A program made the translations under genes and the position numbers. From Mobula hypostoma (taxonomy: Eukaryota), in the NCBI RefSeq assembly GCF_963921235.1, contig NC_086108.1, forward strand, positions 44,022,001-44,086,000: a stretch of DNA of 64,000 bases. The letters are read 5' to 3'. Shown here piece by piece: positions 8,907-49,943 of this stretch (position 1 is the stretch's first letter; each line of letters opens with the position of its first letter). The notes below the pieces were generated by a model. The model had not been told where the DNA came from, did no database searches, and worked only from the letters and a program-made list of their open reading frames with translations.

Positions 8907-8998
8907 GGATATGTCGATCCATAGGAGTGAGCAATTTCCTCATTTCTCATTTAGAGCAGCTGAAGGAAGACTGTGACATCATCCCACATGTCAATCAG
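8907..8998 (+). CDS. Aldo-keto reductase internal exon (upstream exons lie before the window)
   Basis: ttttgtAG acceptor, CAG|GTgaga donor; phase-1 start; translates (G)ICRSIGVSNFLISHLEQLKEDCDIIPHVNQ with the AKR 'SIGVSNF...L' motif and the VNQ motif. Confidence 0.93.
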
Positions 8999-23136: not shown

Positions 23137-23319
23137 GTTGAATATCATCCTTTCCACAAGCCCCAGGAGCTGGTGGACTACTGCAGAAGCCAAGGAATCG
23201 TTTTTGAAGGATACTGCCCTCTGGCTAGAGGCTTGGCTTTGTCACACCCTAATATCATTGAAAAGGCAGAGAAATATCACTGTACACCTGCTCAAATCTG
23301 TATACGTTGGAGCATACAA
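23137..23319 (+). CDS. Aldo-keto reductase internal exon
   Basis: aaacAG acceptor, CAA|GTaagg donor; 183 nt, phase 0; VEYHPFHKPQELVDYCRSQGIVFEGYCPLARGLALSHPNIIEKAEKYHCTPAQICIRWSIQ completes NQVEYHP and carries the Y.PL..G and TPAQI..RW AKR motifs. Confidence 0.95.
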
Positions 23320-23467: not shown

Positions 23468-25033
23468 AAACTTTTCCCCAGGGCCTGATGGTCTGAATCC
23501 CACGGTAGTTAAGGAGGTGGCTCTAGAAATCGTGGACGCATTGGTAATCATTTTCCAATGTTCTATAGATTCAGGATCAGTTCCTGTGGATTGGAGGGTA
23601 GCTAGTGTTATCCCACTTTTTAAGAAAGGAGGGAGAGAGAAAACAGGCAATTATAGACCAGTTAGTCTGACATCATTGGTGGGGAAGATGCTGGAATCAA
23701 TTATAAAAGATGAAATAACGGCATATAGCAGTAGCAGGATAGGTCCAAATCAGCATGGATTTACGAAGGGGAAATCATGCTTGACTAATCTTCTGGAATT
23801 TTTTGAGAATGTAACTTTAAAAATGGACATGGGAAAGCCAGTGGATGTAGTGTACCTGGACTTTCAGAAAGCCTTTGATAAGGTCCCACATAGGAGGTTA
23901 GTGGGCAAAATTAGAGCAAACGGTATTTGGGGTAGGGTACTGACATGGATAGAAAATTGGTTGGCAGACAGGAAACAAAGAGTAGGGATTAATGGGTCCT
24001 TTTCAGAATGGCAGGCAGTGACTAGTGGGGTACAGCCAGGCTCAGTGCTGGGACCACAGCTATTTACAATAAACATTAATGATTTAGATGAAGGGATTAA
24101 AAGTAACATTAGAAAATTTGCAGATGACACAAAGCTGGGTGGCAGTGTGAAATGTGAGGAGGATGTTATGAGAATGCAGGGTGACTTGGAAAGGCTGGGT
24201 GAGTGGGCAGATGCAGTTTAACGTGGATAAATGTGAGGTTATCTACTTTGGTGGCAAGAACAGGAAGGCAAATTACTATCTGAATGGTATCAAGTTAGGA
24301 AAAGGGGAAGTACAACGAGATCTAGGTGTTCTTGTACATCAGTCACTGAAAGCAAGCATGCAAGTACAGCAGGCAGTGAAGAAAGCTAATGGCATGTTGG
24401 CCTTCATAACAAGGGGAGTTGAGTATAGGAACAAAGAGGTCCTTCTGCAGTTGTACAGGGCCCTGGTGAGACCACACCTGGAGTATTGTGTACAGTTTTG
24501 GTCTCCAAATTTGAGGAAGGACATTCTAACTATTGAGGGAGTGCAGCGTAGGTTCACGAGGTTAATTCCTGGGATGGCGGGACTGTCATATGTTGAAAGA
24601 TTGGAGCGACTGGGCTTGTATACACTGGAATTTAGAAGGATGAGAGGGGATCTGATTGAAACATATAAGATTATTAAGGGATTGGACAAGCTAGAGGCAG
24701 GAAGCATGTTCCTGATGTTGGGGGAGTCCAGAACCAGAGGCACAGTTTAAGAATAAGGGGAAGACCATTTAGAACGGAGTTGAGGAAAAACTTTTTCACA
24801 CAGAGGGTTGTGGTTCTGTGGAATGCTCTGCCTCAGAAGGCAATGGAGGCCAATTCTCTGGATTCTTTCAAGAAAGAGTTAGATAGAGCTCTTAAAGATA
24901 GCGGAGTGAAGGGATATGGGGAGAAGGCAGGAAAAGGGTACTGATTGTGGATGATCAGCCATGATCACAGTGAATGGTGGTGCTGGCTCGAAGGGCTGAA
25001 TGGCCTACTCCTGCACCTATTGTCTATGGTCTA
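23468..25033 (+). mobile_element. CR1 LINE, 5'-truncated, young
   Basis: 234-aa and 189-aa RT ORFs; CTATTGT/CTATGGT tail; 8-bp TSD TTAAAGTG (23460-23467 / 25034-25041). Confidence 0.95.
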
Positions 25034-30439: not shown

Positions 30440-30499
30440 AATGGAATTGTGACCATTCCAAAATCCACAAAGAAGGAAAGGATTTGGGAAAACTGCCAG
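30440..30499 (+). CDS. Aldo-keto reductase internal exon
   Basis: tcaAG acceptor, CAG|GTaagt donor; 60 nt, phase 0; NGIVTIPKSTKKERIWENCQ = AKR NADPH-binding IPKS...R..EN motif. Confidence 0.95.
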
Positions 30500-35585: not shown

Positions 35586-38166
35586 CTCCGGATTTGGTAC
35601 CGGTGAATGAAGGATATTAGTCCGATTAGATAACAGAATAATTTGCATGGATTAGGGTATCCAAGTGCACAAGCCACTAAAAACTAGCACATGGGTACAC
35701 AGATCAGTTAAAAAGCCAAATGAAATGTAATCTTGTAATTCACATTAGAATTCAGAAATGAGTTTGTTGACCTCAGTTCTATTGAGTTTCAATCAAGCCT
35801 CTTCTAGTACATTTTGGATGCTGCACAGCAGTGAGAATATTTTGGCTGTCATGGAGTTACTGATGTTTCAGCAAAATCTACCAGGCTCAAAGCATGACAT
35901 TATGAGAACAACTTGCACAAACTTGGCTGGCATCCTCTTGCGCTTTTGGCTTACGAACACTGGATCAGGAATGGCTCATATCACATTTGCCTACTCTGCC
36001 TTCTAATGTTACTTTGGCTGATCCTGGATCTTAGCTATGTTTTCATGCACAAAAATCATCCAGTCTCTATTATGATTAAGTTCAAAAGTAGTGTATCCAC
36101 AGTTCTCCGAGTCAGAATATTCCAATGAGTCACAGTCCTCTGCAGTACCTTTCCTTGGTGGAATCCAAAATGCTGTACCAAGTCCCCTTCATACTAGATT
36201 CTCCAGCCAGAGGAAGTAGTATCTCATAATATCTATTCTGTCAGACTCCCTCAGAATCTTGACCACTTCCCATATTACTGAGCTCCACAGTGAGTGCACA
36301 TCCATCCAACTCTGGCTCACCCTAGTGCAGACTGCAGTTAGACACATCTATCTCAATACTCCACCTTATATCTCCCTCTTTTTATCTCAATATTGCATTG
36401 GTTTACAAGCTTTCTGCTAAAGTGGAGAACAAAATGTTTCAACCTTTGTTGCCAGTAATAATAATTTCTTAGTTCACAATAATTAAGAAGAAAGAGAAAA
36501 ATATTCTCAAAACTCTATTAATTCAAGAATTTCCCTTTTCTGGTACCATGTGGACTGTGCTGTATATTAATCTTTGCTAAATTGTCCTGTTACCAGTTCC
36601 CTAAAAACTGAACTCTAGCCCATTTCTGACTATTGGAGCCAGATTACCTGGACTATAATTTCTATTCATTCACCCTTTTCAGTGACCCACATTGGAGTAC
36701 AATGTGATACTCTCCCTTCCAGTCAGCACCAATAAAGCATGACAGCCTTAAGGATCCCCAGTCATTAACAATGTGCACCCTATCCCACAATATTCATTTT
36801 TACTCCCACAATTAAATGCTTTCATAGTGATGATGTCAAATTGCCCATGGTCTCTGCATTCTTTGTTGTTATTCTTATGGGTTCCAAGTTCTTACCTATT
36901 AACCAGTGTCTCACTGAATCCTTCATTTCTAAATGTACCTGACTGCAAGTAATATCTCTTGAGCATGACCATTAACTAAACAGTAACTACCACCTAAGAT
37001 GTCGACTTACTGGAGTAAATTATTCCAATAATTCCCTATACAACAACCAGCCCTCCCCACCCAACCCAACCCACCAGCTCCCAAAGTATGCAAATATTTT
37101 TAAATACCTGGGATCAAACTGGCCACCTCAATCTCTCACAATACCTTTGACTTATTGCAGTGATAGCAATGACAGTGGGACCCACTAAAGGAGATAAGCT
37201 ATTACTTATTTATGAACCCCAGAGCAACTTTACAATTAAAGCTATTGGAAGGTTCATTTATTATCAAAATATGTATGCAATATACAACTCTGAGATTCCT
37301 CTTCTCCAGATAACCACAAAACAAAGAAAAACCATGCAGTAAGTTCACGACAAACAGCAACCCCCCCCCCCACACCCGCACAAAAACACATCAAGAACAT
37401 TGGCATCCAAAATATCTGGCATAATTTTTTTTTCCAAATAAATGGCTTTGAAAATCTGAGATTCTCTCCTCTGAGGCTATGTATGCCCTTTGGAAAGCAG
37501 GTAAATGGTGTGTGTTGAAGATCACTGGATGGGTTAAAAGTGCAAGGTATTGAATAACTGAATCCTGGCACAGAGCATTCGGTATCAGAAATAATACCGC
37601 AGCATTACAGCAAATAACAGAACCATGAGGACAGCAAATTAGTGCAATGGAGTTAGATTTGCTGCTGTAATATGTTAGCAATATCAAATTGGAATCAGAT
37701 ACAGTGGATTTATACCATGCAAATAGACACTGGTGTTTGGAAATTAGATCACAAAAGCTAGTTTCATCCTAGCCTGAGACACCAATAGATATGGGACAGC
37801 AAGCTAAGATGAGCCAGTAATTCTCTGTGAGCTGAAGTTGGAATCTGCATTTCATTGATGGCACAGGATCAGAAACCTTTGTGGGGAATGCCAATCAAAA
37901 ATTAACATGAAATCCTTTCTTTGAGTATGGTGGACCTTCATCAGACCATACTTAAAAAGACTTTCTCAATAATAATAAGTTTTAGATAACTACCTGAGTA
38001 CAATAACATATTGATCTATACGATTCAAAAACTGAGTTGAATTTCAGATTATTTTATTACTTGAAATAAAATGAGCTGATGTTTCCCCGTTGTTCCATTT
38101 TACTGAGATGCTAACTTCAAGGAACAGAGGAATACTGCTAACTTCACTACACCATGCACTTTGTAG

Positions 38167-38262
38167 GTATTCCATTTTTCCCTTGCGGAGGATGATGTTA
38201 CAGATCTAAATGGAATGCATGATGGCCGACATGTGTCCTGGGATCCTACAAATATCGAATAA
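38167..38262 (+). CDS. AKR terminal exon A (proximal)
   Basis: ctttgtAG acceptor, phase 0; VFHFSLAEDDVTDLNGMHDGRHVSWDPTNIE then TAA. The assembled protein resembles, from memory, the vertebrate 'ZK1290.5/YtbE-like' uncharacterized AKR group. Confidence 0.92.
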   Translation, partial: VFHFSLAEDDVTDLNGMHDGRHVSWDPTNIE

Positions 38263-38671
38263 TGTATGTCAAAATTTTATTCACACTCAGTTTCGTAATA
38301 GATATCAGATGTTCATTCTTTTGATTTATACAAATTGATATTATGAAAATACTTTAGGGAATATTTCAGCAGTAATTCAACAAAATCATCACATACCAAT
38401 GCCATGAACAGACCTCATACACAAAGAATTTTTAATTTTATGTTTCTGCTGGAGATTTAACTAGTGGCTAGTATCATAGAATTTCTGCATGTCATGAATA
38501 CTGTAGATCATAGAAAGGTATTTCCATTTATTTGGTGCCCTGTTGCATTGAACCTAAATTTTTAAATCCCAAACCAGTGTTTTAAAATTTTTAAATGTTA
38601 AAATAACTTTGCTTATAAAGAACTGAAGGAACTAAATACAATACTTATTATCTGAACCTATTGAGACAAGA

Positions 38672-38742
38672 AATAAAAGCAGAACAAAACTTTTGAATGT
38701 AAAGTAAATAAAGTTACTAAAATCATGAAAGCATGAAATAAA
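38672..38742 (+). promoter_or_regulatory. Candidate polyadenylation signals for isoform A
   Basis: AATAAA at 38672, 38707 and 38737, about 0.4-0.5 kb after the exon A stop; region is AT-rich so chance occurrence is possible. Confidence 0.45.
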
Positions 38743-38848
38743 ATCAACTCTGCATATTTGAAAAATGTTCAAGATGATTACCCTTGGAAACATAGAAGAT
38801 CTTAACCTCAAATTAACTTGGTACATCTCTGATATATATACACACACA

Positions 38849-40313
38849 CAGTTGAAGTCAGAAGTTTACATACACTTAGGTTGATGTCATTAAAACTCAT
38901 TGTTTAACCACTCCACTGATTTCATATTAGCAAACTATAGTTTTGGGAAGACGTTGAGGACATGTACTTTGTGCATGACAGGAGTAATTTTTACAACACT
39001 TGTTTACTGACAGATTATTTCACTTTTAATTGACTATATCACAATACCAGTGGGTCAGAAGTTTACAAACAAAATCAAAAGAAATCAGCCAAGACCTCAG
39101 GAAAAAAAATTGTGGACCTCCACAAGTCTAGTTCATCCTTGGGGGCAATTTCCAAACGCCTGAAGGTACCACGTTCATCTGTAAAAACAATAGTACGCAA
39201 GTATAAACACCATGGGACCATGCAGCTGTCATACCGCTCAGGAAGGAGACGCATTCTGTCTCCTAGAGGTGAACCTACTTTGGCGCGAAAAGTAGAAATC
39301 AATCCCGGAACAACAGCAAAGGACCTTGTGAAGATGCTGGAGGAAACAGGTAGACAAGTATCTATATCCACAGTAAAATGAGTCCTATATCGACATAACC
39401 TGAAAGGCTGTTTAGCAAGGAAGAAGCCACTGCTCCAAAACTGCCATAAAAAAGCCAGACTACAGTTTGCAAGTGCACATGGCGACAAAGATCTTACTTT
39501 TTGGAGAAATGTCCTCTGGTCTGATGAAACAAAAATTGAACTGTTTGGCCATAATAATCATCGTTATGTTTGGAGGAAAAAGGGTGAGGCTTGCAAGCCG
39601 AAGAACACTATCCCAAACGTGAAGCACGGGGGTGGCAGCATCATGTTGTGAGGATGCTTTGCTGCAGGAGAGACTGGTGCACTTCACAGAATAGATGATA
39701 TCACGAGGAAGGAAAATTATGTGGATATATTGAAGCAACATCTCAAGACATCAGCCAGGAAGTTAAAGCTCGGTCACAAATGGGTCTTCCAAATGGACAA
39801 TGACCCCAAGCATATCTCCAAAGTTGTGGCAAAATTGCTTAAGGACAACAAAGTCAAGGTATTGGAGTGGCCATCACAAAGCCCTGACCTCAATCCGATA
39901 GAAAATTTTTGGACACAACTGAAAAAGCGTGTGCGATCAAGGAGGCCTACAAACCTGACTCAGTTACACCAGTTCTGTCTGGAGGAACGGAACAAAATTC
40001 CAGCGACTTATTGTGAGAAGCTTGTGGAAGGCTACCTAAAACATTTGACCCAAGTTAAACAATTTAAAGGCAATGCTACCAAATACTAACAAACTGTATG
40101 TAAACTTCTGACCCACTGGGAAAGTGATGAAAGAAATAAAAGCTGAAATAAATCATTCTCTCTACTATTTGACATTTCACATTCTTAAACTAAAGTGGTG
40201 ATCCTAACTGACCTAAGACAGGGAATGTTTTCTAGGATTAAGTGTCAGGAATTGTGAAAAACTGAGTTTAAATGTATTTGGCTAAGGTGTATGTAAACTT
40301 CTGGCTTCAACTG
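38849..40313 (+). mobile_element. Sleeping Beauty-like Tc1 transposon (IR/DR type)
   Basis: Ends CAGTTGAAGTCAGAAGTTTACATACAC / GTGTATGTAAACTTCTGGCTTCAACTG-TA; inner DRs at 39050-39070 and 40096-40116. Confidence 0.96.
39072..40089 (+). pseudogene. SB-like DD34E transposase pseudogene
   Basis: KSKEISQDLR...GRRR...WSDETKIELFG...MDNDPKH...SPDLNPIEN...KGNATKY; ATG lost, +1 frameshift in the A-run at 39102-39109, TGA stops at 39379 and 39649. Confidence 0.95.
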
Positions 40314-40315
40314 TA

Positions 40316-40400
40316 TCTCCCTCTCCCTCTCCCCTCCCCCTCCTCTCTCTCTCCCTCCCTCTCCCTCTCCCTCTCCCCTCCTCCCTCTCCCTCCCCCTCC
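40316..40400. repeat. C/T-rich low-complexity tract
   Basis: (CTCC/CT)n polypyrimidine run directly after the Tc1. Confidence 0.85.
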
Positions 40401-40419
40401 CTCCTCCAAACCCCCCCCC

Positions 40420-41610
40420 ATCTCGGGAGACAGACCATTCATTGACATCTTTTACAAAAACCTACTGACTCACAATTATCTTGATAGCCCTTCCCAATTT
40501 GCAAAAATACTATTCCTTTCTCTCATTTCTTCTGTGTCTGTCACTTCCATTCTCAGGGTGAAGCCTTCCATTCTAGAACATCTGAGATGTCCTTTCAAAG
40601 AATTGGTTTTCTCTTCCACCACCATCACTGCTGCCCTCATCCACATCTCCTCCATTTCTCACACATCTCACCCCACCTTCCCACTGTCAGAACCGAGATA
40701 GGGCTCACCTTGTTCTTACTTACCACCCCAGAAGCCTCTATATAAAACACATCATTCTCCATAAATTCTGCAACCTCCAACAAGGTCCTACCACTAAACA
40801 CATCTTTCTTTTCCCCCTCCACTTTCTGTAGGGATTGCCCTCTTCCTAACCCCTTTGTCCACTTATCCCTCCCCAATGATCTCCTTCCTCATGGATCTCC
40901 CTCCCTGCAAGTGTGACAAGTGGTACACTTGTCCCTAAACCTCCTCCTTCACCACCATGAAGTTCTTCCAGGCGCAGCAACATTTCTGCTGGGAGTTTGT
41001 CGGAGTCATCTGTTGTAGCCCATGCTCCTGGTTTGGACTCTTCTTCACTGGGTAGGCCTGATGCAGATTGGGGGACAAGTTTGTCAGGCACATTTGTCTG
41101 TCACAAAAGGCAGGATCTCCAAGTGGCTACCCATTTCGGTTTGACTTCCTATTCCCATTCTGCCATGATGAGGCCATACTCAGACTGGGGAAGCAACACC
41201 TCATATTGCACCTGTGTTTCTTTCCTCTCTTTTTCCATTCCCTGGTTACCCTCTCAGCCCTTCTCTCCACCTGCCCATCACCTCCCTCTGGTTCCTTTCC
41301 TCCTTCTTTACCCTTTACGTCTTCAAACTATTGCCTTCCAGCTTCTTACTTTAACTCCTCCCCCCATCCACCTTCCCCCCTCACTAGGTTTCACCTATCA
41401 CCTGTAACCTGTTCTCCTTCCTTTACCCCAACGATTTTATTCTGGCCTCTGTCCCCTTGTTTTTCTTTCTAGTCCTGATGAAGGACCTCAGCCCAAAATG
41501 TTGACTGTTTAATCCTCTCCATAGACGCTGCCTGACCTGCTGAGTTCCTCCTGAGTTATTTTGTATGTATTTTTCAATATTTCCAGCATCTGCAGAGTCT
41601 CTTGTGTTTA
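40420..41610 (+). mobile_element. Penelope-like element, decayed, with terminal repeat
   Basis: Collinear with 51525-52661; degenerate hammerhead agtc-ctgatga-agg...ccc-aaaa-tgtt-gact near 41471-41506. Confidence 0.85.
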
Positions 41611-42922
41611 AGATTTTATCAATAGAAGTGTGTCAGCATCAGGCAGGACACAAGTAAATTTATATTGCTTATTGACAGGTTTTAGAGGCCACTTATGATA
41701 AAGTACTAACTGAGGCTTTGCAGCGCACCCCCCCCCCCAAACATTAATATGTAAGGAATCTGAAAAAGGCTTTCACCATAATTTAATGTGAGTTCAAATA
41801 TGACTGCTGAATAGATAAAATTAGTAATGTGCTTGACCATAAAGTGGCATTCATCGGTATTCAGCTTGTCTTCATTAAGCTACTAGCAGGGGTACAGCAA
41901 TTGACTTCAAAGCATAGAAAAATTCTTAACTGTCAAATGTAATAAAAAACTAATTTCAACACATTTTCTTCAATTTTCCTTCTGGTTGTTAGTTAATGCC
42001 ATGATTTCTTTACTCTTGTGTATTAATGCCTGATCTCTTAACCTTCACTAATGTGGCCCAGATGAAAGTAGAGCACAGTGGTACACTTATCAAAGACATC
42101 TTCCCACTCCTTTTGCTGGTTGATGCTAAAAATAGTCAGCTATAGATAAGAAAAGAGACTTGTGATATAAATGCTTTTCTCCCTGTAATAAAGACTAAGT
42201 TGTATTTTAATAATGGTCTTTAAAACGGTGAATGGTTTTAAAAGACTTTACTTGATTGAAGATGCAATGAGAAGGAAGTTATCATTAACTTAAGATGCAT
42301 ACTGAGAGTGAGGAGGGAGGTTAGGAGAAATTTCTTTACATCAGAGCTTCCAAACTCTCTTGCTGTGTCCCACTTCAGGGAGACTAGGTTTTGGTGGAGT
42401 CATACCCATTCCTTATACAGTGGAAGATAGTTAATTATTGGACTTCAGCCATCTCAACCCTGGCATATTAATGCAGGTGTTCTTCAGGACAGTTCAGTGA
42501 GACAAATCATCTTTGGGTGTTTCACCAGTGTCATTTCCACCCTGAATTGGGCTCATAAATAGGAAACAACATTCTCACTACTGTACTCAGGTGCTTGGCA
42601 GTGGCCATTACTCATTAGCATCTCTAGCTTTGCTGCTATCAACACTTTCAGTATCACCATTGACCAGAACTCAACCAGAACAGTCATGCAGGTACTGCTT
42701 CACTGACAGCATTTCAGAAGTTAGATACCTTGCAATAAGTGACTCATCTTCAGCTGCTGACATCTTTTCATAACCTGCATGGTGCAATGTAACTGTGTGA
42801 TAGGATACTCCTCTTGCTTGGATGAGTGGAACTCCAGCAACAGTTAAATTTGACATATTCCACGAAAAAGCAGTACACTTACTTCCCACCCCATCTACCA
42901 ACTTAGTTATTCACTCTTTTGA

Positions 42923-43391
42923 ATGAATGAATGAATGAAATTTATTTCGGTCAGTACAAACATAACAAAAAGCATGATTTCATGGGACAAAATTACAACA
43001 AAAAACATAGGTATTCCTTAAAACAGACTGAAAGTGTGTAGGCTGAAGCTACAGCTTACTATGCCTACTTCTCTTACTTATACAACAACATATTTGGCGT
43101 CAATCATCACATCAAAACAAAAAATTTCATAATCTTTTAACACAGAGGCCAATTCCATGTATCATTTATTTACATTACTCCCATTCATTTAAAATCATGT
43201 ATTTTATATTTGTTCATTAAATTATTTTTAAATAATTTTTTAAGCTTGTTAAGTGTGGTGCATGTTTTTAAATTCTCACTACAACTGTTCCATAGATTCC
43301 CCCCTGACTGAAATACAATAATTTTTTACATTTGATCTTAACCTTTGTTTTTGAAGTATATATGTTCCTCCCAAATCATGTTGACTTTCTC
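42923..43391 (-). mobile_element. L2/Crack-like LINE 3' end
   Basis: 12-bp TSD TCACTCTTTTGA (42911-42922 / 43392-43403); minus strand AATAAA plus (TTCA)n tail; ORF2-end-like RSNVK..CISVRG..LWN. Confidence 0.75.
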
Positions 43392-43505
43392 TCACTCTTT
43401 TGACCATTGGTAGACTATGGCTGCAGTATATACCATTTCTAAAGTGCACTGTAATTACTCAACCAGTATACTTATTCAGCACTTCCCAAGCCGGCAATCT
43501 CTACC

Positions 43506-43670
43506 ACACAAAAAGTGCTGGAGGAACTCAGCAGATCTGGCGGTCTGTATGGAGGGAAACAGTCCATGTTTCGGCTTGAGACCCTTCATTTGGATTTCCT
43601 GTGAAATGTTGGCTGTCCACTTATCTCCTTAAATGCTGCATGACCTGCTGATTTCCTCCAGCACCTATGT
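43506..43670. mobile_element. Palindromic PLE terminal-repeat derivative
   Basis: gtgctggaggaactcagcag ... ctgctgatttcctccagcac inverted arms around a degenerate hammerhead. Confidence 0.75.
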
Positions 43671-45242
43671 TATTGCAGGCTCTACCATCAATATGAGGAA
43701 CAGATTCCTGGGAACGCCAGTGCCCAAACATGCAGCAAGCCAAGAATATATTATCTTGTTGGGTCTAGATCCACAAAAGCATTGTGGGTCTATTTTTCCA
43801 TGAGCATGACAACAGCACTTCAAGAGGTGACTCACCGTTATCTTTTTGAGGACAATTAGAGATGGACCGTGAAAGCCAAAAAAAAATTATGCTATAACTG
43901 CAGCATAAAACAGCTACATCTATACTGCATGAAATACAAAATGTTTTGAAGTCTGATGTTTTAGGGATTTTACGAATTCCTTGAAAATTTGTTTTTGGGA
44001 TTACAATGTCAAATTTTGGTCCATTAAATCAGTTTTTCATTTGACCTTCTAAGCAGTTAATTCTGCTGGTTAACTATTTAACCAAATAGCAGGTGAAAGA
44101 AGGAGCTTGTAGCTGAGTGAGACTGAAAGTAAATATCTTTCAGTTTAACCGTCTATGCTAACAACATCCTGAAGTCTTATTTAGAAGTATCAGTCGTTGC
44201 AGATTTTGCTTTCTAATCTCAGTAAAGTTGCAGATATACAGATGAATATATTCTCTTGTATTACTTAAATAAAACCCTTTAGAAGAATGTTATGGATGTC
44301 TCAGAGATTGTTATATCACTTTAGATTTTAAGAAACAAAGTAGCCAATATATGAATAAACCACATAATATACCTTTGTTGTATAATGGCCAAATTAAGAA
44401 TATGTGAACCACACCCATGAAGAATCAATGGCTTTTTTCAGTTATGTCTGGTCTCAATTTATTGCATATCTGAGTTAGCACAAAATGTGCAGTCACTCAG
44501 ACCGTTAACATCCTGCCTTTATCATGAGAAGGACAATATATTAAAAAGCCACACCTAAACTGTTACAAAAGAAACCCAAATTTCACACATTTCTATAATA
44601 CAATTGATAAACAATGGCAGAGTCAGACAACCTTCACAAAATACAGTATTACAATAATAGAGAGAGAGGAATAGAAGAAAGGAGCTTTACTTTATAGCAG
44701 CAGTGTCACCAACAATGCTCTGACCTAGAATACCAGCGTGTGACTCCACACTCAGACATGCTTTCACAGGAGTTGCTGACCAGAAATGTGATATAGTTTC
44801 ATACTGAGCGTCACCTGGTATACTGAGGGCCAGCAGCAGACTAGATGCAATAACTCAAAATATCTCTGCCATTCAACAAGATTGTGGCTGGTCTACCACC
44901 TGAAAATTTCTCTGCCCTCCCTCCCCCTCCCCTCAGTCCTCTACTGTCCAGGTCTATCAATTTCAGTTTGAATGCAGACTGAGCCCACCCTCCGGGATAG
45001 AGAATTCCAAAGATTTACCACTTCTCTTCATTTCAGTCCGAGGTGCCATACATCATACACCTTATTGTGCAAAACTGAGCCTTAGTCCTAGACTCCTCAG
45101 CCAGGATAAGCAACACCTCCCTCCGCCCTGCCCCCCAGATTTACCCTTTCAAGCCTCCCACGGAGGTTACATTGTTTTAGTAATTAAATAGAAGCCCTAC
45201 TTGCTCAAATTTCTCCTCATCTCCTTACTGGTCTTACAATTT

Positions 45243-45968
45243 CAGAGGATATGTTCTGGGCCCAGCATGTAAGTGCAGTTACAAAGAAAGCATGGCAGCG
45301 CCTCAACCTCCTTAGAAGATTGCGTACATTCATCATGAAATCTAAAACTTTGACAAACTTCTATAGATGTGTGGTGGTGAGTATGTTGGTAGGTTGCATT
45401 ACAGCATGGTATGGGAACGGCAATGCTCTTGAATGGAATATCCTCCAGAAAGTAGTGGATGCTGCCCAGTCCATCATGGGTAAAGCCCTTCCCATCATTA
45501 CGCATATCTACACGGAGCGCTGGCGCAGGAAACTAGCATTCATCTTCAAGGACTCCCACCACCCAGACGATCTCTCCTCTTACTACTGCTATCAGGAAGA
45601 AGGTTCAGGAGCCTCAGGACCCACAACACCAGGTTCAGGAACAATTAGTACCCTTCAGCTACCAGGTTCTTAAACCAATGGGGATAACTTCCCTCAACCT
45701 CACTCACCCCATCATTAAACTGTGCCCACAATCTATGGATTCACTTTCAAGGACTCTTCATCTCATGTTCTCAATATTTATTGCTTACTTGTTTATTATT
45801 ATATTATTTTCTTTTGTACTTGCACATTGGTTGGTTGTCCATCTTGTTGGGTGTGGTCTTTCATTGATTCTATTGTGTTCCTTGGATTTATTGAATATGC
45901 CACAAGAAAATGAATCAGGGTTGTATATTGTGACATATATGTACTTCAATAATAAATGTACTTTGAAC
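45243..45968 (+). mobile_element. Rex1 LINE 3' end
   Basis: KKAWQRL..LRRLR.F...KTLTNFYRCVV.SML.GCITAWYG; ends aataaatgtactttgaac. Confidence 0.88.
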
Positions 45969-46481
45969 TCTATTGTCATCCCAGGAACCGAAGCTGCTCT
46001 TCCTCTATTACAAGTGCATCCTTTTTTAGGTAAGGCAACCAAATTTATACATAGTATTCTGGGTGAAGTTTTATCAAGGCCCTATATACTCATAACAAGA
46101 CATTCTTGTTCTTGGGGTCAAATTTCCTTGCAATAAAGACCATATTATTTGCCTTCTAAATCATGTGCTGCACATCTATACTAACTTTCAATGATCTGTA
46201 TATAGCGTTATAGAGTCAAAGAATACTACAGTACAGAAGCAGGTCCTTAAGTCCATCTAGTCCATGCTTGATGAGGCATGTGAATAACTTATCCCAATTA
46301 ACTGAACTGAAAGACCTCACCCTGAGCTCCAAGTTATATAATGGAAGTCCTCAGCGGGTGACATGCACCAAACATAGTCATTGGCTGATGTGAATGTTAA
46401 TTGCAATTATTTAATTTTCAAAAAGACCCTCAATTCTGTAGCTCTGTGATTATAAACCTAAAAAAATCATGAATATTGGGC

Positions 46482-47700
46482 GACACACACAATTCTGGAG
46501 GAGCTCAGCAGGCCAGACAGCATCTGTGGAAAAGAGCACAGTCGATGTTTTCGGGCGAGGCCCTTCAACAGGACTGGAGAAAAAAGCTGAGGAGAAGATT
46601 TAAGTTGGGGGGGGAGGGGAGAGGGAAACACCTGGAGGGGGAGGAATGAAGTAAAGAGCTAGGAAGTTGATTGCTGAAAGAGACAGAAAGCCATGGAAGA
46701 AGGGGGGAGGAGCACAGAGGGAGGCGATGAGCGGGCAAGGAGATAAGGTGAGAGAGGGAAAAGGGGATGGGAAATGATGAGGGAGTGGGGAAGAGGGCTG
46801 TGGGGCATTACCAGAAGTTCGAGAAATCAATGTTCATGCCATCAGGTTGGAGGCTACCCAGACGGAATATAAGGTGTTGTTCCTCCAACCGAAGTGTGGC
46901 CTCATCACAACAGTAGAGGAGGCCATGGATAGACATATCGGAAAAGGAATGGGAAGTGCAATTAAAATGGGTGGCCACTGGGAGATCCTGCTTTTTCTGG
47001 TGGACAGACCATAGGTGCTCGGCAAAGCGGTCTTCCAACCTACATTGGGTATCACCAATTACAGGAGTACCGGGCACAGTATGTGACTCCAGCAAACTCA
47101 CAGGGAGTGTCACCTCACCTGGAAGGACTGCTGAGGATCCTGAGCGGTAGTGAGGGAGGAGATGTAGGGGCAGGTGTAGCACTTGTTCTGCTTGCAAGGG
47201 TAAGTGCTAGGAGGGAGATCACTGGGGAGAGATGAATGGACAAGGAAGTTGTGTAGGGAGCAATCCCTGCAGAAAGCAGGGGTGGGGAGAGGGAAAGATG
47301 TGTTTGGTGATGGGATCCCGTTGGAGATGGCGGAAGTTACGGAGAATTATATGCTGGATGTGGAGGCTGGTGGGGTGGTAGGTGAGAACAAGAGGAAGTC
47401 AATCCCTGGTAGGGTGGCAGGAGGATAGAGTAAGAACCGATGTGTGTGAAATGGAAGAAATGCGGTGGAGGAAGGGAAGCCCCTTTCTTTGAAAAAGGAG
47501 GCTACCTCCTTTGTTCTAGAATGAAGAGTCTCATCCTGAGAGCAGATGCAGCGGAGATGGTGGAATTAAGAGAAGGGGATGGTGTTTTTACAAGTGACAG
47601 GATGGGTAGTCCAGGTAGCTGTGAGAGTCCGTGGGTTTATTATAGCCATCAGTGGGTAAGCTGTCTCCAGAGATAGAGACAGTGAGATCGAGAAAGGGGA
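46482..47700 (-). mobile_element. Penelope-like element 3' part with terminal repeat
   Basis: RLEDRFAEH...PVATHFN...RLEEQHLIFRLGSLQPDGMNIDFSNF; degenerate hammerhead at ~46540-46575. Confidence 0.88.
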
Positions 47701-47922
47701 GCGAGGTGCTGAGAAAGGGGGTGTTGAGCCATAATTTTAAATTTTATAAGCTATAGAGTTAAGTAGCTTCACTTTGTATTTATCTTATAATATTATCCAA
47801 TGATTTCAGCTGAATTATAAACAATATCCTTACCACCCATGTAATATGCTATCATTAAATCTCCTACACTGGCAGTGTATTTTTTGCTACTCTTAGAAAC
47901 ATTGCTCTGATTTGCTTTACAG

Positions 47923-48027
47923 GTGTTTGATTTTTCACTCAGTGAAGAAGATATGACATCCCTAAACTCACTTGAGGATAACAAAAAGCAGGTTACACTG
48001 AAATTTCCTTTATGGAAGGAACATTAA
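47923..48027 (+). CDS. AKR terminal exon B (distal, duplicated alternative last exon)
   Basis: ctctgatttgctttacAG acceptor, phase 0; VFDFSLSEEDMTSLNSLEDNKKQVTLKFPLWKEH then TAA; 11 of the first 19 residues identical to exon A. Confidence 0.82.
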   Translation: MFDFSLSEEDMTSLNSLEDNKKQVTLKFPLWKEH

Positions 48028-49937
48028 TTTCATTCAGAACTGATGACTGCCAAGGTGGATCCCTCCAGTGAACATATTCAAGGAATGCTCATATGACCCT
48101 AATTTTGACTGTAGCCACAGTATTCACACCGTGAAGATTCCTAGTATTGGTTAACCTCTTTGGATGGAGTGCCACTACAGGAAAACCTGACGTCAGGTAC
48201 CTTACTCAAATAGAAGGTGATTTCTATTGTTGAACTTAATAGTACACTAATCCATATTCATAACACTGGGAATTGAAGCCCATTCTATTTCAGGCATTCA
48301 ATGATATATTCATTTATTTCATTACTCATTAACTCTATAAGACAATTGGTCCATAATCAGATGCAATCAGAAGACACTGAATGCAATTTTCCCAATATGT
48401 GGGAAAATACTATTACAAAATCAAAGGTGAAATGCAGATTCTTTTAAACTTTTAGCCTCAGATTTTTGAGAGTTGAGTTTAAAAAGATTTGGTTTTTATT
48501 TGTTATCTTACTGTACTGTTAATCCTTCTTTAACTGTTTCTTTGAATGATCAGTATTCCAGAGACTGAACTATGCACAGAATGTTTAAAGCCATTTGATT
48601 TTTTTTCTCAAAAAGAGATTTGCCTTTCAAAAAAAAACTAAGTGCTTGCAACTGAAATAGAATCCTGTATTAATTACTTGAATTGTTAGTGTTTATATTT
48701 TAATTAAAATGTTTATTTTTTAAAAATATCACAGTCACATCTATTCTTTGAAGGAAAACCAACCAACTAATATGTCATTAAGAATTTAATGATGGAAAAA
48801 ATAGTAATTGGAGTTTAGCTTGAGTTTTGCTGCTGCTATCGAAAATTCATCAGAAATCTTCACTACTGCCTTCACATAAAAGTTATGTCACTGTATAAAG
48901 ATGAAAACTGACTACTAATTTGGAATGTGGATGTTTTGCACTAAGCTTGAATTTTACCAATTCAATTGCAAATAGCCGATTCAAAAATAGACGGTCCAGC
49001 TCAACACCACAGTTTATGCCAAGCAACATCTGGAGTGACAAATTGGCAGCTCCTTCTTTAGCAGAATAAGCATGTACTGTTCCTGATCATAATGAATTGT
49101 GAGGATGATCTCCACAAAACCCTTACGCTGGAATTCTGCTTTCAACTGGAGCCTCTGAGGGACAATAACAGAACAAACACTAGCACACAGTAAAAGAATT
49201 GTAGTCAGATGATGGCCAGTTGTGAATTGGCTAACGTTCTCCAGCATGTGGTCCAGAAATTGGAACCCTACTGATCACTAGTCGATCAAGTGCTGTTTCC
49301 TAATTGTTCAAACTCTGCAAATCTATAAATCATGTGACTCTGCAAATGTTATACAACAATTTGTGGAAAAGGAGCAAAAACAAACTACCTCTTTTCACCA
49401 GGTTCATCAGCATAGAAACAAAATAATGAATTCATGGTTATTAGATGGACTTATTCAGAGTTTCTTTATCATCTATAAATGAATGGAATGCATTTTCATT
49501 TGTGATAAATAGAAATATGTTGGAAAGTAAAGAGGCATTGAGTTTATAACATTCATTTTCAAAGCCTGAAACTGAAGAATCTGCAACTAGTGGTTTGAAA
49601 TGTCTGTCAGGTGTATCGGGATATTGGTCTGTACTGATAAAGCCATACTGCACACACACTCTTTTGTAACTCAGGTTTAGGTATGATAATCATAGTTATG
49701 GATACTGAACAGTTTACTTATGGTGCTGGAATCCAGTATTCTGCGTAGTGAATGAAAATTTGCTGATGTGACACCAATCTTATTCTGTGGTTCAGTTATG
49801 ACATGACATTGGGTGTAGCATAAAGAGCTTCTCACGCCTACTGTACCTGACCTGATGTGATTCATATTCTGTAAGACTGGCATTGTTTTGTATCAAACCA
49901 ATACTTTAACTGACATGCAAATGTTCAGAAGGGCAGA

Positions 49938-49943
49938 AATAAA
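49938..49943 (+). promoter_or_regulatory. Candidate polyadenylation signal for isoform B
   Basis: AATAAA near the end of a ~1.9-kb stretch with no recognisable TE after exon B, followed by T/GT-rich sequence. Confidence 0.4.

Follow-up and report, generated by a model that had tools for sequence, protein, structure and literature searches.

The stretch of Mobula hypostoma DNA considered here, namely positions 44,022,001 to 44,086,000 of the forward strand of contig NC_086108.1 (NCBI RefSeq assembly GCF_963921235.1), contains the later exons of an aldo-keto reductase (AKR) gene; these 64,000 nucleotides are called the window below, and positions are counted from its first letter. The gene very probably possesses two mutually exclusive last exons, A and B, which stem from a tandem duplication of the terminal exon that preceded the split of sharks and bony vertebrates. 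The donor at 30499 would, in a competition of the usual kind, be spliced either to the acceptor of A at 38167, with cleavage of the message after A, or to the acceptor of B at 47923, with A and its poly(A) site being skipped. Both messages would encode an identical barrel with the same catalytic residues and cofactor motif; since the IPKS..R..EN stretch of that motif lies in a shared exon, the part exchanged would be the last helix and the C-terminal loop. The A form would retain an ancestral polar end (..HDGRHVSWDP..), and the B form would acquire a derived hydrophobic end (..K-L/I-I/V-x-L-x-Y/F-P-L-W-K..).

Two last exons behind one shared donor

The exons of the gene that fall within the window are as follows:

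8907..8998, plus strand: shared AKR exon coding for (G)ICRSIGVSNFLISHLEQLKEDCDIIPHVNQ; acceptor tttgtag/GG, donor CAG/gtgaga; 32/32 identical to the Hemitrygon isoforms
23137..23319, plus strand: shared AKR exon coding for VEYHPF...CIRWSIQ, 61 aa; PF00248, 26.8 bits
30440..30499, plus strand: shared exon (the IPKS exon) coding for NGIVTIPKSTKKERIWENCQ, with the IPKS..R..EN cofactor motif; donor CAG/gtaagt common to A and B
38167..38262, plus strand: terminal exon A, coding part, with the ancestral-type tail ..HDGRHVSWDPTNIE; stop TAA at 38260-38262
47923..48027, plus strand: terminal exon B, coding part, with the derived tail ..NKKQVTLKFPLWKEH; stop TAA at 48025-48027

Exon A translates as VFHFSLAEDDVTDLNGMHDGRHVSWDPTNIE up to its stop and is preceded by ..cactttgtag/GTA, while exon B translates as VFDFSLSEEDMTSLNSLEDNKKQVTLKFPLWKEH up to its own stop and is preceded by ..tgatttgctttacag/GTG; each junction presents an AG acceptor behind a pyrimidine-rich run, and both acceptors are in phase 0, which is also the phase of the IPKS-exon donor CAG/gtaagt. 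The original prediction, made from the letters of the window, had placed two phase-0 last exons with good acceptors and their own stops behind the IPKS exon, and reading the window sequence bears it out. Its counts for the two exons, 11 identical residues among the first 19 and synonymous differences in 6 of those 11 codons, proved exact when recounted by script, and over the same 19 codons 35 of 57 bases are identical. This likeness of A and B over their first 19 residues is far above chance. A tblastn search of 144 kb with a stingray orthologue recovered both exons, A at 31/31 (E 3e-16) and B at 34/35 (E 2e-16).

Each form presumably has its own poly(A) site, for which pattern matching offers these candidates:

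38672, 38707 and 38737 (span 38672..38742), plus strand: three AATAAA hexamers, candidate poly(A) signals of the A form, 410-475 nt past the A stop
48703..48708, plus strand: ATTAAA, candidate poly(A) signal of the B form, 676 nt past the B stop, the next AATAAA being at 49938

Searches with tblastn, using an intronless paralogue and then stingray orthologues as queries, assign these exons to one plus-strand AKR gene spanning ~159 kb, with exon 1 at about -110.9 kb, exon 2 at -59.4 kb and exon 3 at -40.9 kb in window coordinates. Exons A and B occur in one copy each in the 3.47 Gb assembly, and exon 2 is likewise single-copy. The gene is the vertebrate orthologue of the 'ZK1290.5-like / glyoxal reductase-like / zgc:110366' aldo-keto reductase, whose orthologues are entered in the databases as 'uncharacterized oxidoreductase ZK1290.5', 'glyoxal reductase(-like)', 'YtbE-like' or 'zgc:110366'. 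The intronless paralogue (L001; C82:20803014-20803823, minus strand) is a GC-rich AKR open reading frame (ORF) of 302 residues, 284 from Met. It shares ~43% of its residues with the stingray orthologue, finishes in the A-like ..CWDPRLVV, and represents either a retrogene or a distinct paralogue.

Membership in the AKR superfamily is evident at several levels. The cut-off of PF00248 (24 bits) is exceeded even by exon 23137-23319 alone, and P0127 and P0001, two stingray orthologues, reach 177.9 and 173.1 bits. The Pfam domain ends ~15-18 residues into either alternative exon, such that the distal tails lie beyond the model; on their own, the 31- and 34-residue exons, which are too short for the purpose, matched 0 families at E up to 10. 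The barrel fold was recovered for the orthologue, the AlphaFold model of the A form of P0001 having a pLDDT of 88.5. In Foldseek comparisons made with this modelled orthologue, rather than with the window's own protein, the template modelling (TM) score is 0.85-0.89 to YtbE, YvgN and the trypanosomatid prostaglandin F (PGF) synthases. Across Bacillus subtilis YvgN/YtbE, the trypanosomatid enzymes and Escherichia coli DkgA, which share this fold at TM 0.85-0.89, the identity of P0001 is 37-44%: 42-44% to YvgN/YtbE, 40-42% to the Trypanosoma cruzi and Leishmania PGF synthases, and 37-39% to DkgA and the Trypanosoma brucei PGF synthase. AKR nomenclature groups proteins into a family at >40% identity, and we take YvgN, YtbE, DkgA and the trypanosomatid PGF synthases to be AKR5 members. 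Judged by sequence and modelled fold, the ray enzyme belongs with the AKR5-type reductases and may be called AKR5-like. The hallmarks of AKRs are a catalytic tetrad Asp-Tyr-Lys-His and the IPKS..R..EN cofactor motif; in this genome, HIDTA, KKYG and TTKLW are found in exon 2, MHWP in exon 3, and IPKSTKKERIWEN at 30440-30499.

One tail per message in related species

That A and B are alternatives of one gene, as had been predicted, is upheld by the relatives: in 11 species with an A as well as a B form, the two proteins agree in everything ahead of the tail, with 100% identity in 10 of these species and 216/217 in Xenopus tropicalis. In Hypanus, Hemitrygon and Mobula, both tails are given as RefSeq isoforms; the X1/X2 entries of Hypanus sabinus, Hemitrygon akajei and Mobula birostris correspond to this gene and place its two tails (A 31/31, B 33/34) at a single locus. 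More specifically, the A tail of the window equals that of Hemitrygon X2 over 31/31 residues, and its B tail is 33/34 identical to Hypanus X1, Hemitrygon X1 and Mobula X2 and possesses all 5 invariant B columns (L6, K22, L26, P29, W31). From the skates comes a cluster with seven Logan contigs of 1004-3098 nt that carry B-type ORFs; six of these ORFs are complete (288-301 aa), and the seventh contig (1339 nt) has a 184-aa partial ORF. Since seven or more introns leave no room for the unspliced gene in 1004-3098 nt, the size of these contigs implies that they are spliced RNA. The retention of exon B in related species, which had been named beforehand as a condition, is likewise seen, the B tail being present in rays, sharks and bony vertebrates. 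In sum, A and B are homologous, share a phase and have separate acceptors and stops, and in relatives they are joined to the same upstream exon with one tail per message, apart from 4 of 122 models that chain the two. By extension, Mobula hypostoma probably splices both A and B.

An alternative origin for exon B would be a separate tandem paralogue, of which it would be a part or a remnant never spliced to the shared exons. Tandem copies of AKR genes are frequent in vertebrates, and the 9.7 kb between A and B could hold small exons. However, the prediction that the stretch between the two is free of a second series of upstream AKR exons was confirmed: three queries gave 0 AKR matches in 38263-47922, where there is instead a transposase remnant:

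39034..40086, plus strand: Tc1/mariner (Sleeping Beauty-like) transposase remnant between A and B; HTH_SB 4e-17, DDE_3 1e-14

This remnant is filler in the A-B interval and stands outside the gene's own parts. The identity of A- and B-type proteins upstream of their tails in 11 species also speaks against a separate paralogue, as do raptor gene models that put B ~17 codons after A. This origin is thus close to refuted, and we regard it as very improbable indeed. In the 20 kb beyond the window, no AKR matches were found with the paralogue and two orthologues as queries.

The distribution of the two tails was surveyed with the 61-residue exon 23137-23319 as query, which recovered 276 proteins; the best 120 of these, together with two from a tail-restricted search, make up a census of 122. 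Classification by regular expression gave classes of 65, 32, 3, 13 and 9, and after five proteins (P0002, P0071, P0109, P0031, P0114) were reassigned by eye, the census stands as follows:

A-type tail (..HDGRHVSWDP..): 67/122
B-type tail (..K-L-I-H-L-T-Y-P-L-W-K-G or the shark/ray variant): 33/122
A and B chained in one model (raptors): 4/122, two flagged LOW QUALITY and two unflagged UniRef entries
Other tails, mostly intron read-through: 12/122
Ending before the IPKS exon: 6/122

All named matches among the best 120 of the 276 are from jawed vertebrates; no therian mammal occurs among these 120, and monotremes are present. Both tail types were found in sharks, rays, ray-finned fishes, amphibians, squamates, turtles, birds and monotremes, with only B seen in crocodiles and only A in the coelacanth in this sample. 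Tail-restricted searches returned 2 proteins for residues 262-301 of P0003 and 14 for residues 259-298 of P0051, all of jawed vertebrates. Cluster look-ups added 39 elasmobranch proteins, bringing the cluster members to 44 in all (11 A, 29 B, 3 other and 1 fragment), with both forms in ten elasmobranchs: Hypanus, Hemitrygon, Mobula, Amblyraja, Leucoraja, Rhinoraja, Scyliorhinus torazame, Mustelus and both Chiloscyllium species.

The ends of the tails show some variation of their own. Several raptor models (P0083, P0085, P0100, P0114, P0082) run from the A tail through 17 codons into the B exon; such read-through implies loss or override of the A stop in the Accipitriformes, with B following A at a distance of only ~50 nt. 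Avian splicing may therefore choose between two acceptors that share one terminal region. The B form ends in ..PLWKEH in rays and ..PLWKG in bony vertebrates, and in sharks it extends 10-15 residues beyond ..PLWKEQ, e.g., as ..ELQSKLTFVH or ..SQSEPSIARKVASQ (P0004, P0006, P0147-P0153, P0156, P0160, P0161); these differing ends indicate that the B stop has shifted position between lineages. Other isoforms of the relatives skip the catalytic-His exon (..DYI/GICRS..) or the IPKS exon (..WSIQ/VF..) (P0002, P0007, P0009, P0130, P0131), and, from the exons they omit, should be inactive.

Contrary evidence and the frameshift in the assembled exon 2

Several observations weigh against this reading of A and B. 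The two exons follow each other within a single protein in four raptor models, the isoforms of the relatives are mostly computed gene models, and for Mobula hypostoma itself none of the 22 listed sequencing runs is on record as RNA. The last 12 residues of B are without a counterpart in any solved AKR, and AlphaFold, with input alignments of 32 and 22 rows, gives a pLDDT <50 for both distal tails and a B model that is poor overall (70.2). Further, exon 2 of this assembly (L016:647-885, window ~-59353..-59115) is one base short after ..PGDYG, which breaks the frame, and lacks another 9 in-frame bases upstream (YLKK---ES) relative to all orthologues. It reads ..GAT TAT GGC ATG GAG.., where every orthologue has ..D-Y-G-Y-G-A-T-K..; the break precedes the catalytic-His exon, and the 1-base deletion puts the catalytic Lys and His in different reading frames.

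The defect in exon 2 might mean that in this species the gene is defunct or on the way to being lost and yields no protein any longer, the terminal exons being an inheritance from a working ancestor rather than parts of a living isoform switch. Beyond the frameshift and the 9-base gap, this is favored by two private changes, S to R and K to R, at 39 strictly invariant columns (in a leave-one-out comparison of 63 sequences), and by the gene not being universally required, as there is no therian among the best 120 of 276 orthologues. Against this, the remaining exons are all open and 85-100% identical to those of stingray orthologues, the terminal exons matching at 31/31 for A and 33/34 for B. 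At columns conserved in >=95% of sequences, the window protein is outside the 10 most deviant of the 63, and it is only slightly further from skates (222/250) than is Hypanus (231/254). With so few private changes and a distance close to that of Hypanus, there has been no long decay, and the one indel could stem from a faulty assembly or from one null allele. We accordingly consider the death of the locus improbable; the defect itself may come from the assembly, represent a null allele or mark a very recent loss (pseudogene).

Origin and possible role of the two tails

The inference of an old duplication in the original prediction is supported by the wide occurrence of both tails and by profile comparison: profiles of 25 A tails and 25 B tails are homologous over the first 21 columns (hhalign probability 96.9%), and hhalign found no alignment between their distal parts. 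A direct-repeat search of 37000-49500 revealed no DNA-level repeat joining the flanks of A and B, and this absence of intron likeness around the two exons suggests that the duplication is too old to have left any. An origin of the distal B tail from A by a frameshift was rejected, no likeness being seen by eye in three frames of the distal DNA of A.

As for which of the two ends is older, the A-type tail of stingray P0001 can be aligned with B. subtilis YvgN/YtbE up to 2-3 residues from where those enzymes end, and alignments of the B form to the same enzymes end 12 residues short, stopping at ..NNSK. Solved AKR5-type enzymes have a single tail, with no alternative exon, and are without the last 12 residues of B; their end is of the form R-V-G-P-N/D-P, against R-H-V-S-W-D-P in the A type. 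Against solved AKRs, the B-tail profile gives matches in positions 1-23 only (1-26 for AKR1D1). A full-length B-type profile was also compared with 1.84 billion cluster representatives (50% clusters). Among the best 150, only 3 align past profile position 285, namely a frog protein, the cyprinid fragment zgc:110366 and a locust AKR1B1-like protein whose end differs from B. A search for the B-end motif among 145 new proteins found the cyprinid only, and among the best 150 representatives the motif is confined to the vertebrate ones. The annelid Owenia (..RVTWDPTDIM) and the brittle star Amphiura (..HTLNPFKDVP) have A-like ends, and Ascaris has a long, different tail. The A-like ends of YvgN/YtbE, Owenia and Amphiura, taken with the B alignments that stop short, point to A as the old end, and on this sample B looks like a jawed-vertebrate derivative of the duplicated terminal exon. 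The two copies preserve different ancestral halves: B has the ..SEEDM.. helix, which also occurs in bacteria and in L001, the paralogue, and A has the ..R..WDP.. end.

Selection was gauged by mean protein identity over 55 pairs of the 11 two-form species:

Shared core: 0.79
A, first 21 residues: 0.71
A, distal 10 residues: 0.70
B, first 21 residues: 0.60
B, distal 12 residues: 0.71

The claim that both copies are under purifying selection thus stands at the level of protein identity, with distal tails at 0.70 (A) and 0.71 (B) against a core of 0.79. The 28 pairs between sharks or rays and bony vertebrates give 0.72 for the core, 0.65 for distal A and 0.62 for distal B. Among lizard, echidna, frog and teleost, the distal dozen of B is identical at 10-12 of 12 residues, and the core of the same pairs is at 0.69-0.78. 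These identities indicate that both tails are constrained, B remarkably so in the bony vertebrates.

With respect to what such a swap might accomplish, loop swaps at the C-terminus of AKRs are reportedly the subject of a 1996 paper by Barski et al. The C-terminal loop C of AKR1 enzymes is one of three variable loops said to set substrate and inhibitor selectivity (PMC3328219). By analogy, it is plausible that the A/B swap retunes the substrate pocket. Because the tails are unplaced by AlphaFold, the models lend no structural support to a pocket change, and the conservation of the B end would equally fit a role in binding or sorting.

One might accordingly envisage that the swap is real and that the B end is a binding or sorting module (for a partner, a membrane surface, an oligomer contact or stability) rather than a determinant of substrate choice. 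Its distal K-L-I-H-L-T-Y-P-L-W-K-G is conserved at 10-12/12 in bony vertebrates, above the core at 0.69-0.78, which would be unusual for a loop that merely shapes a pocket; the lack of a counterpart in solved AKRs and of a position in the AlphaFold models goes in the same direction. Set against these are the place of AKR1 loop C among the three specificity loops and the alignment, though weak (E 0.22 in a single-exon search), of the window B exon over all of its 34 residues with the start of the loop C of AKR1D1. The latter makes a resemblance of B to the start of an AKR1-type loop C a weak lead. A peroxisomal tag was considered and ruled out, no tail ending in a PTS1-like tripeptide of the S/A-K/R-L type. 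Taken together, a binding or sorting role is possible but, in our judgment, less likely than not.

A parallel might be drawn with the AKR1 enzymes (aldose and aldehyde reductase, AKR1B10 and the AKR1C group), in which loop C, one of the three variable loops tied to selectivity (PMC3328219), corresponds to the same protein segment as the A/B swap. The difference is that the AKR1 loops vary between paralogous genes, whereas the ray gene would offer two by splicing; the likeness of B to AKR1 is itself weak (AKR1D1, E 0.22). More generally, alternative last or mutually exclusive exons arising from tandem exon duplication form a known class. The ray gene resembles this class in having two homologous tandem exons of the same phase, one per message and both conserved, and differs from it in that both copies are terminal, as a result of which the use of poly(A) sites may join the choice of acceptor. 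The gene is a well-conserved new example of such alternative last exons in the AKR superfamily. The A and B forms are already on record as automatic isoforms in many genomes, the closest relatives included, but the ray X1/X2 entries are automatic annotations without a described function, and the copy in this assembly differs from them in being frameshifted in exon 2. A library search by gene names and for AKR alternative last exons found no literature on the isoforms of this gene.

We would tentatively propose that the jawed vertebrates gained a second, near-invariant C-terminal module (K-L-I-H-L-T-Y-P-L-W-K-G) for an ancient AKR5-type reductase, that splicing controls its use beside the older tail, that the B form is functionally distinct, and that the therians lost the entire gene; as a whole, this is less likely than not. 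Were it true, the B form would have a different substrate class or a tail-mediated partner, and the gene itself would constitute a regulated 'loop C switch' of natural origin. That the B end is so extremely conserved argues for some specific role. A and B would have coexisted in jawed vertebrates for some 450 million years. The specificity of AKRs is usually diversified by gene duplication, and here one gene holds two deeply conserved versions of the loop that chimera work on AKR1 enzymes ties to the choice of substrate and inhibitor. The two isoforms present a natural experiment, as their barrels are the same residue for residue and only helix H2 and loop C set them apart, and both are available in zebrafish, Xenopus, chicken and lizards. 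The gene has escaped study because it has no assigned function and no therian representative among the best 120 of its 276 orthologues. There is also a lesson for annotation, in that short terminal exons that are invisible to ORF tracks may be recovered through their phase, acceptor and paralogy.

Finally, the introns of the gene have accumulated mobile elements. The A-B interval contains two copies, 80% alike, of a 56-nt element at 41496-41551 and 43604-43659, which is probably a dispersed repeat. The intron right after the 23137-23319 exon carries a reverse-transcriptase ORF (RVT_1, E 1e-24) at 23469-24218 on the plus strand; it marks a retroelement insertion, and several such insertions swell the gene to its 159 kb.

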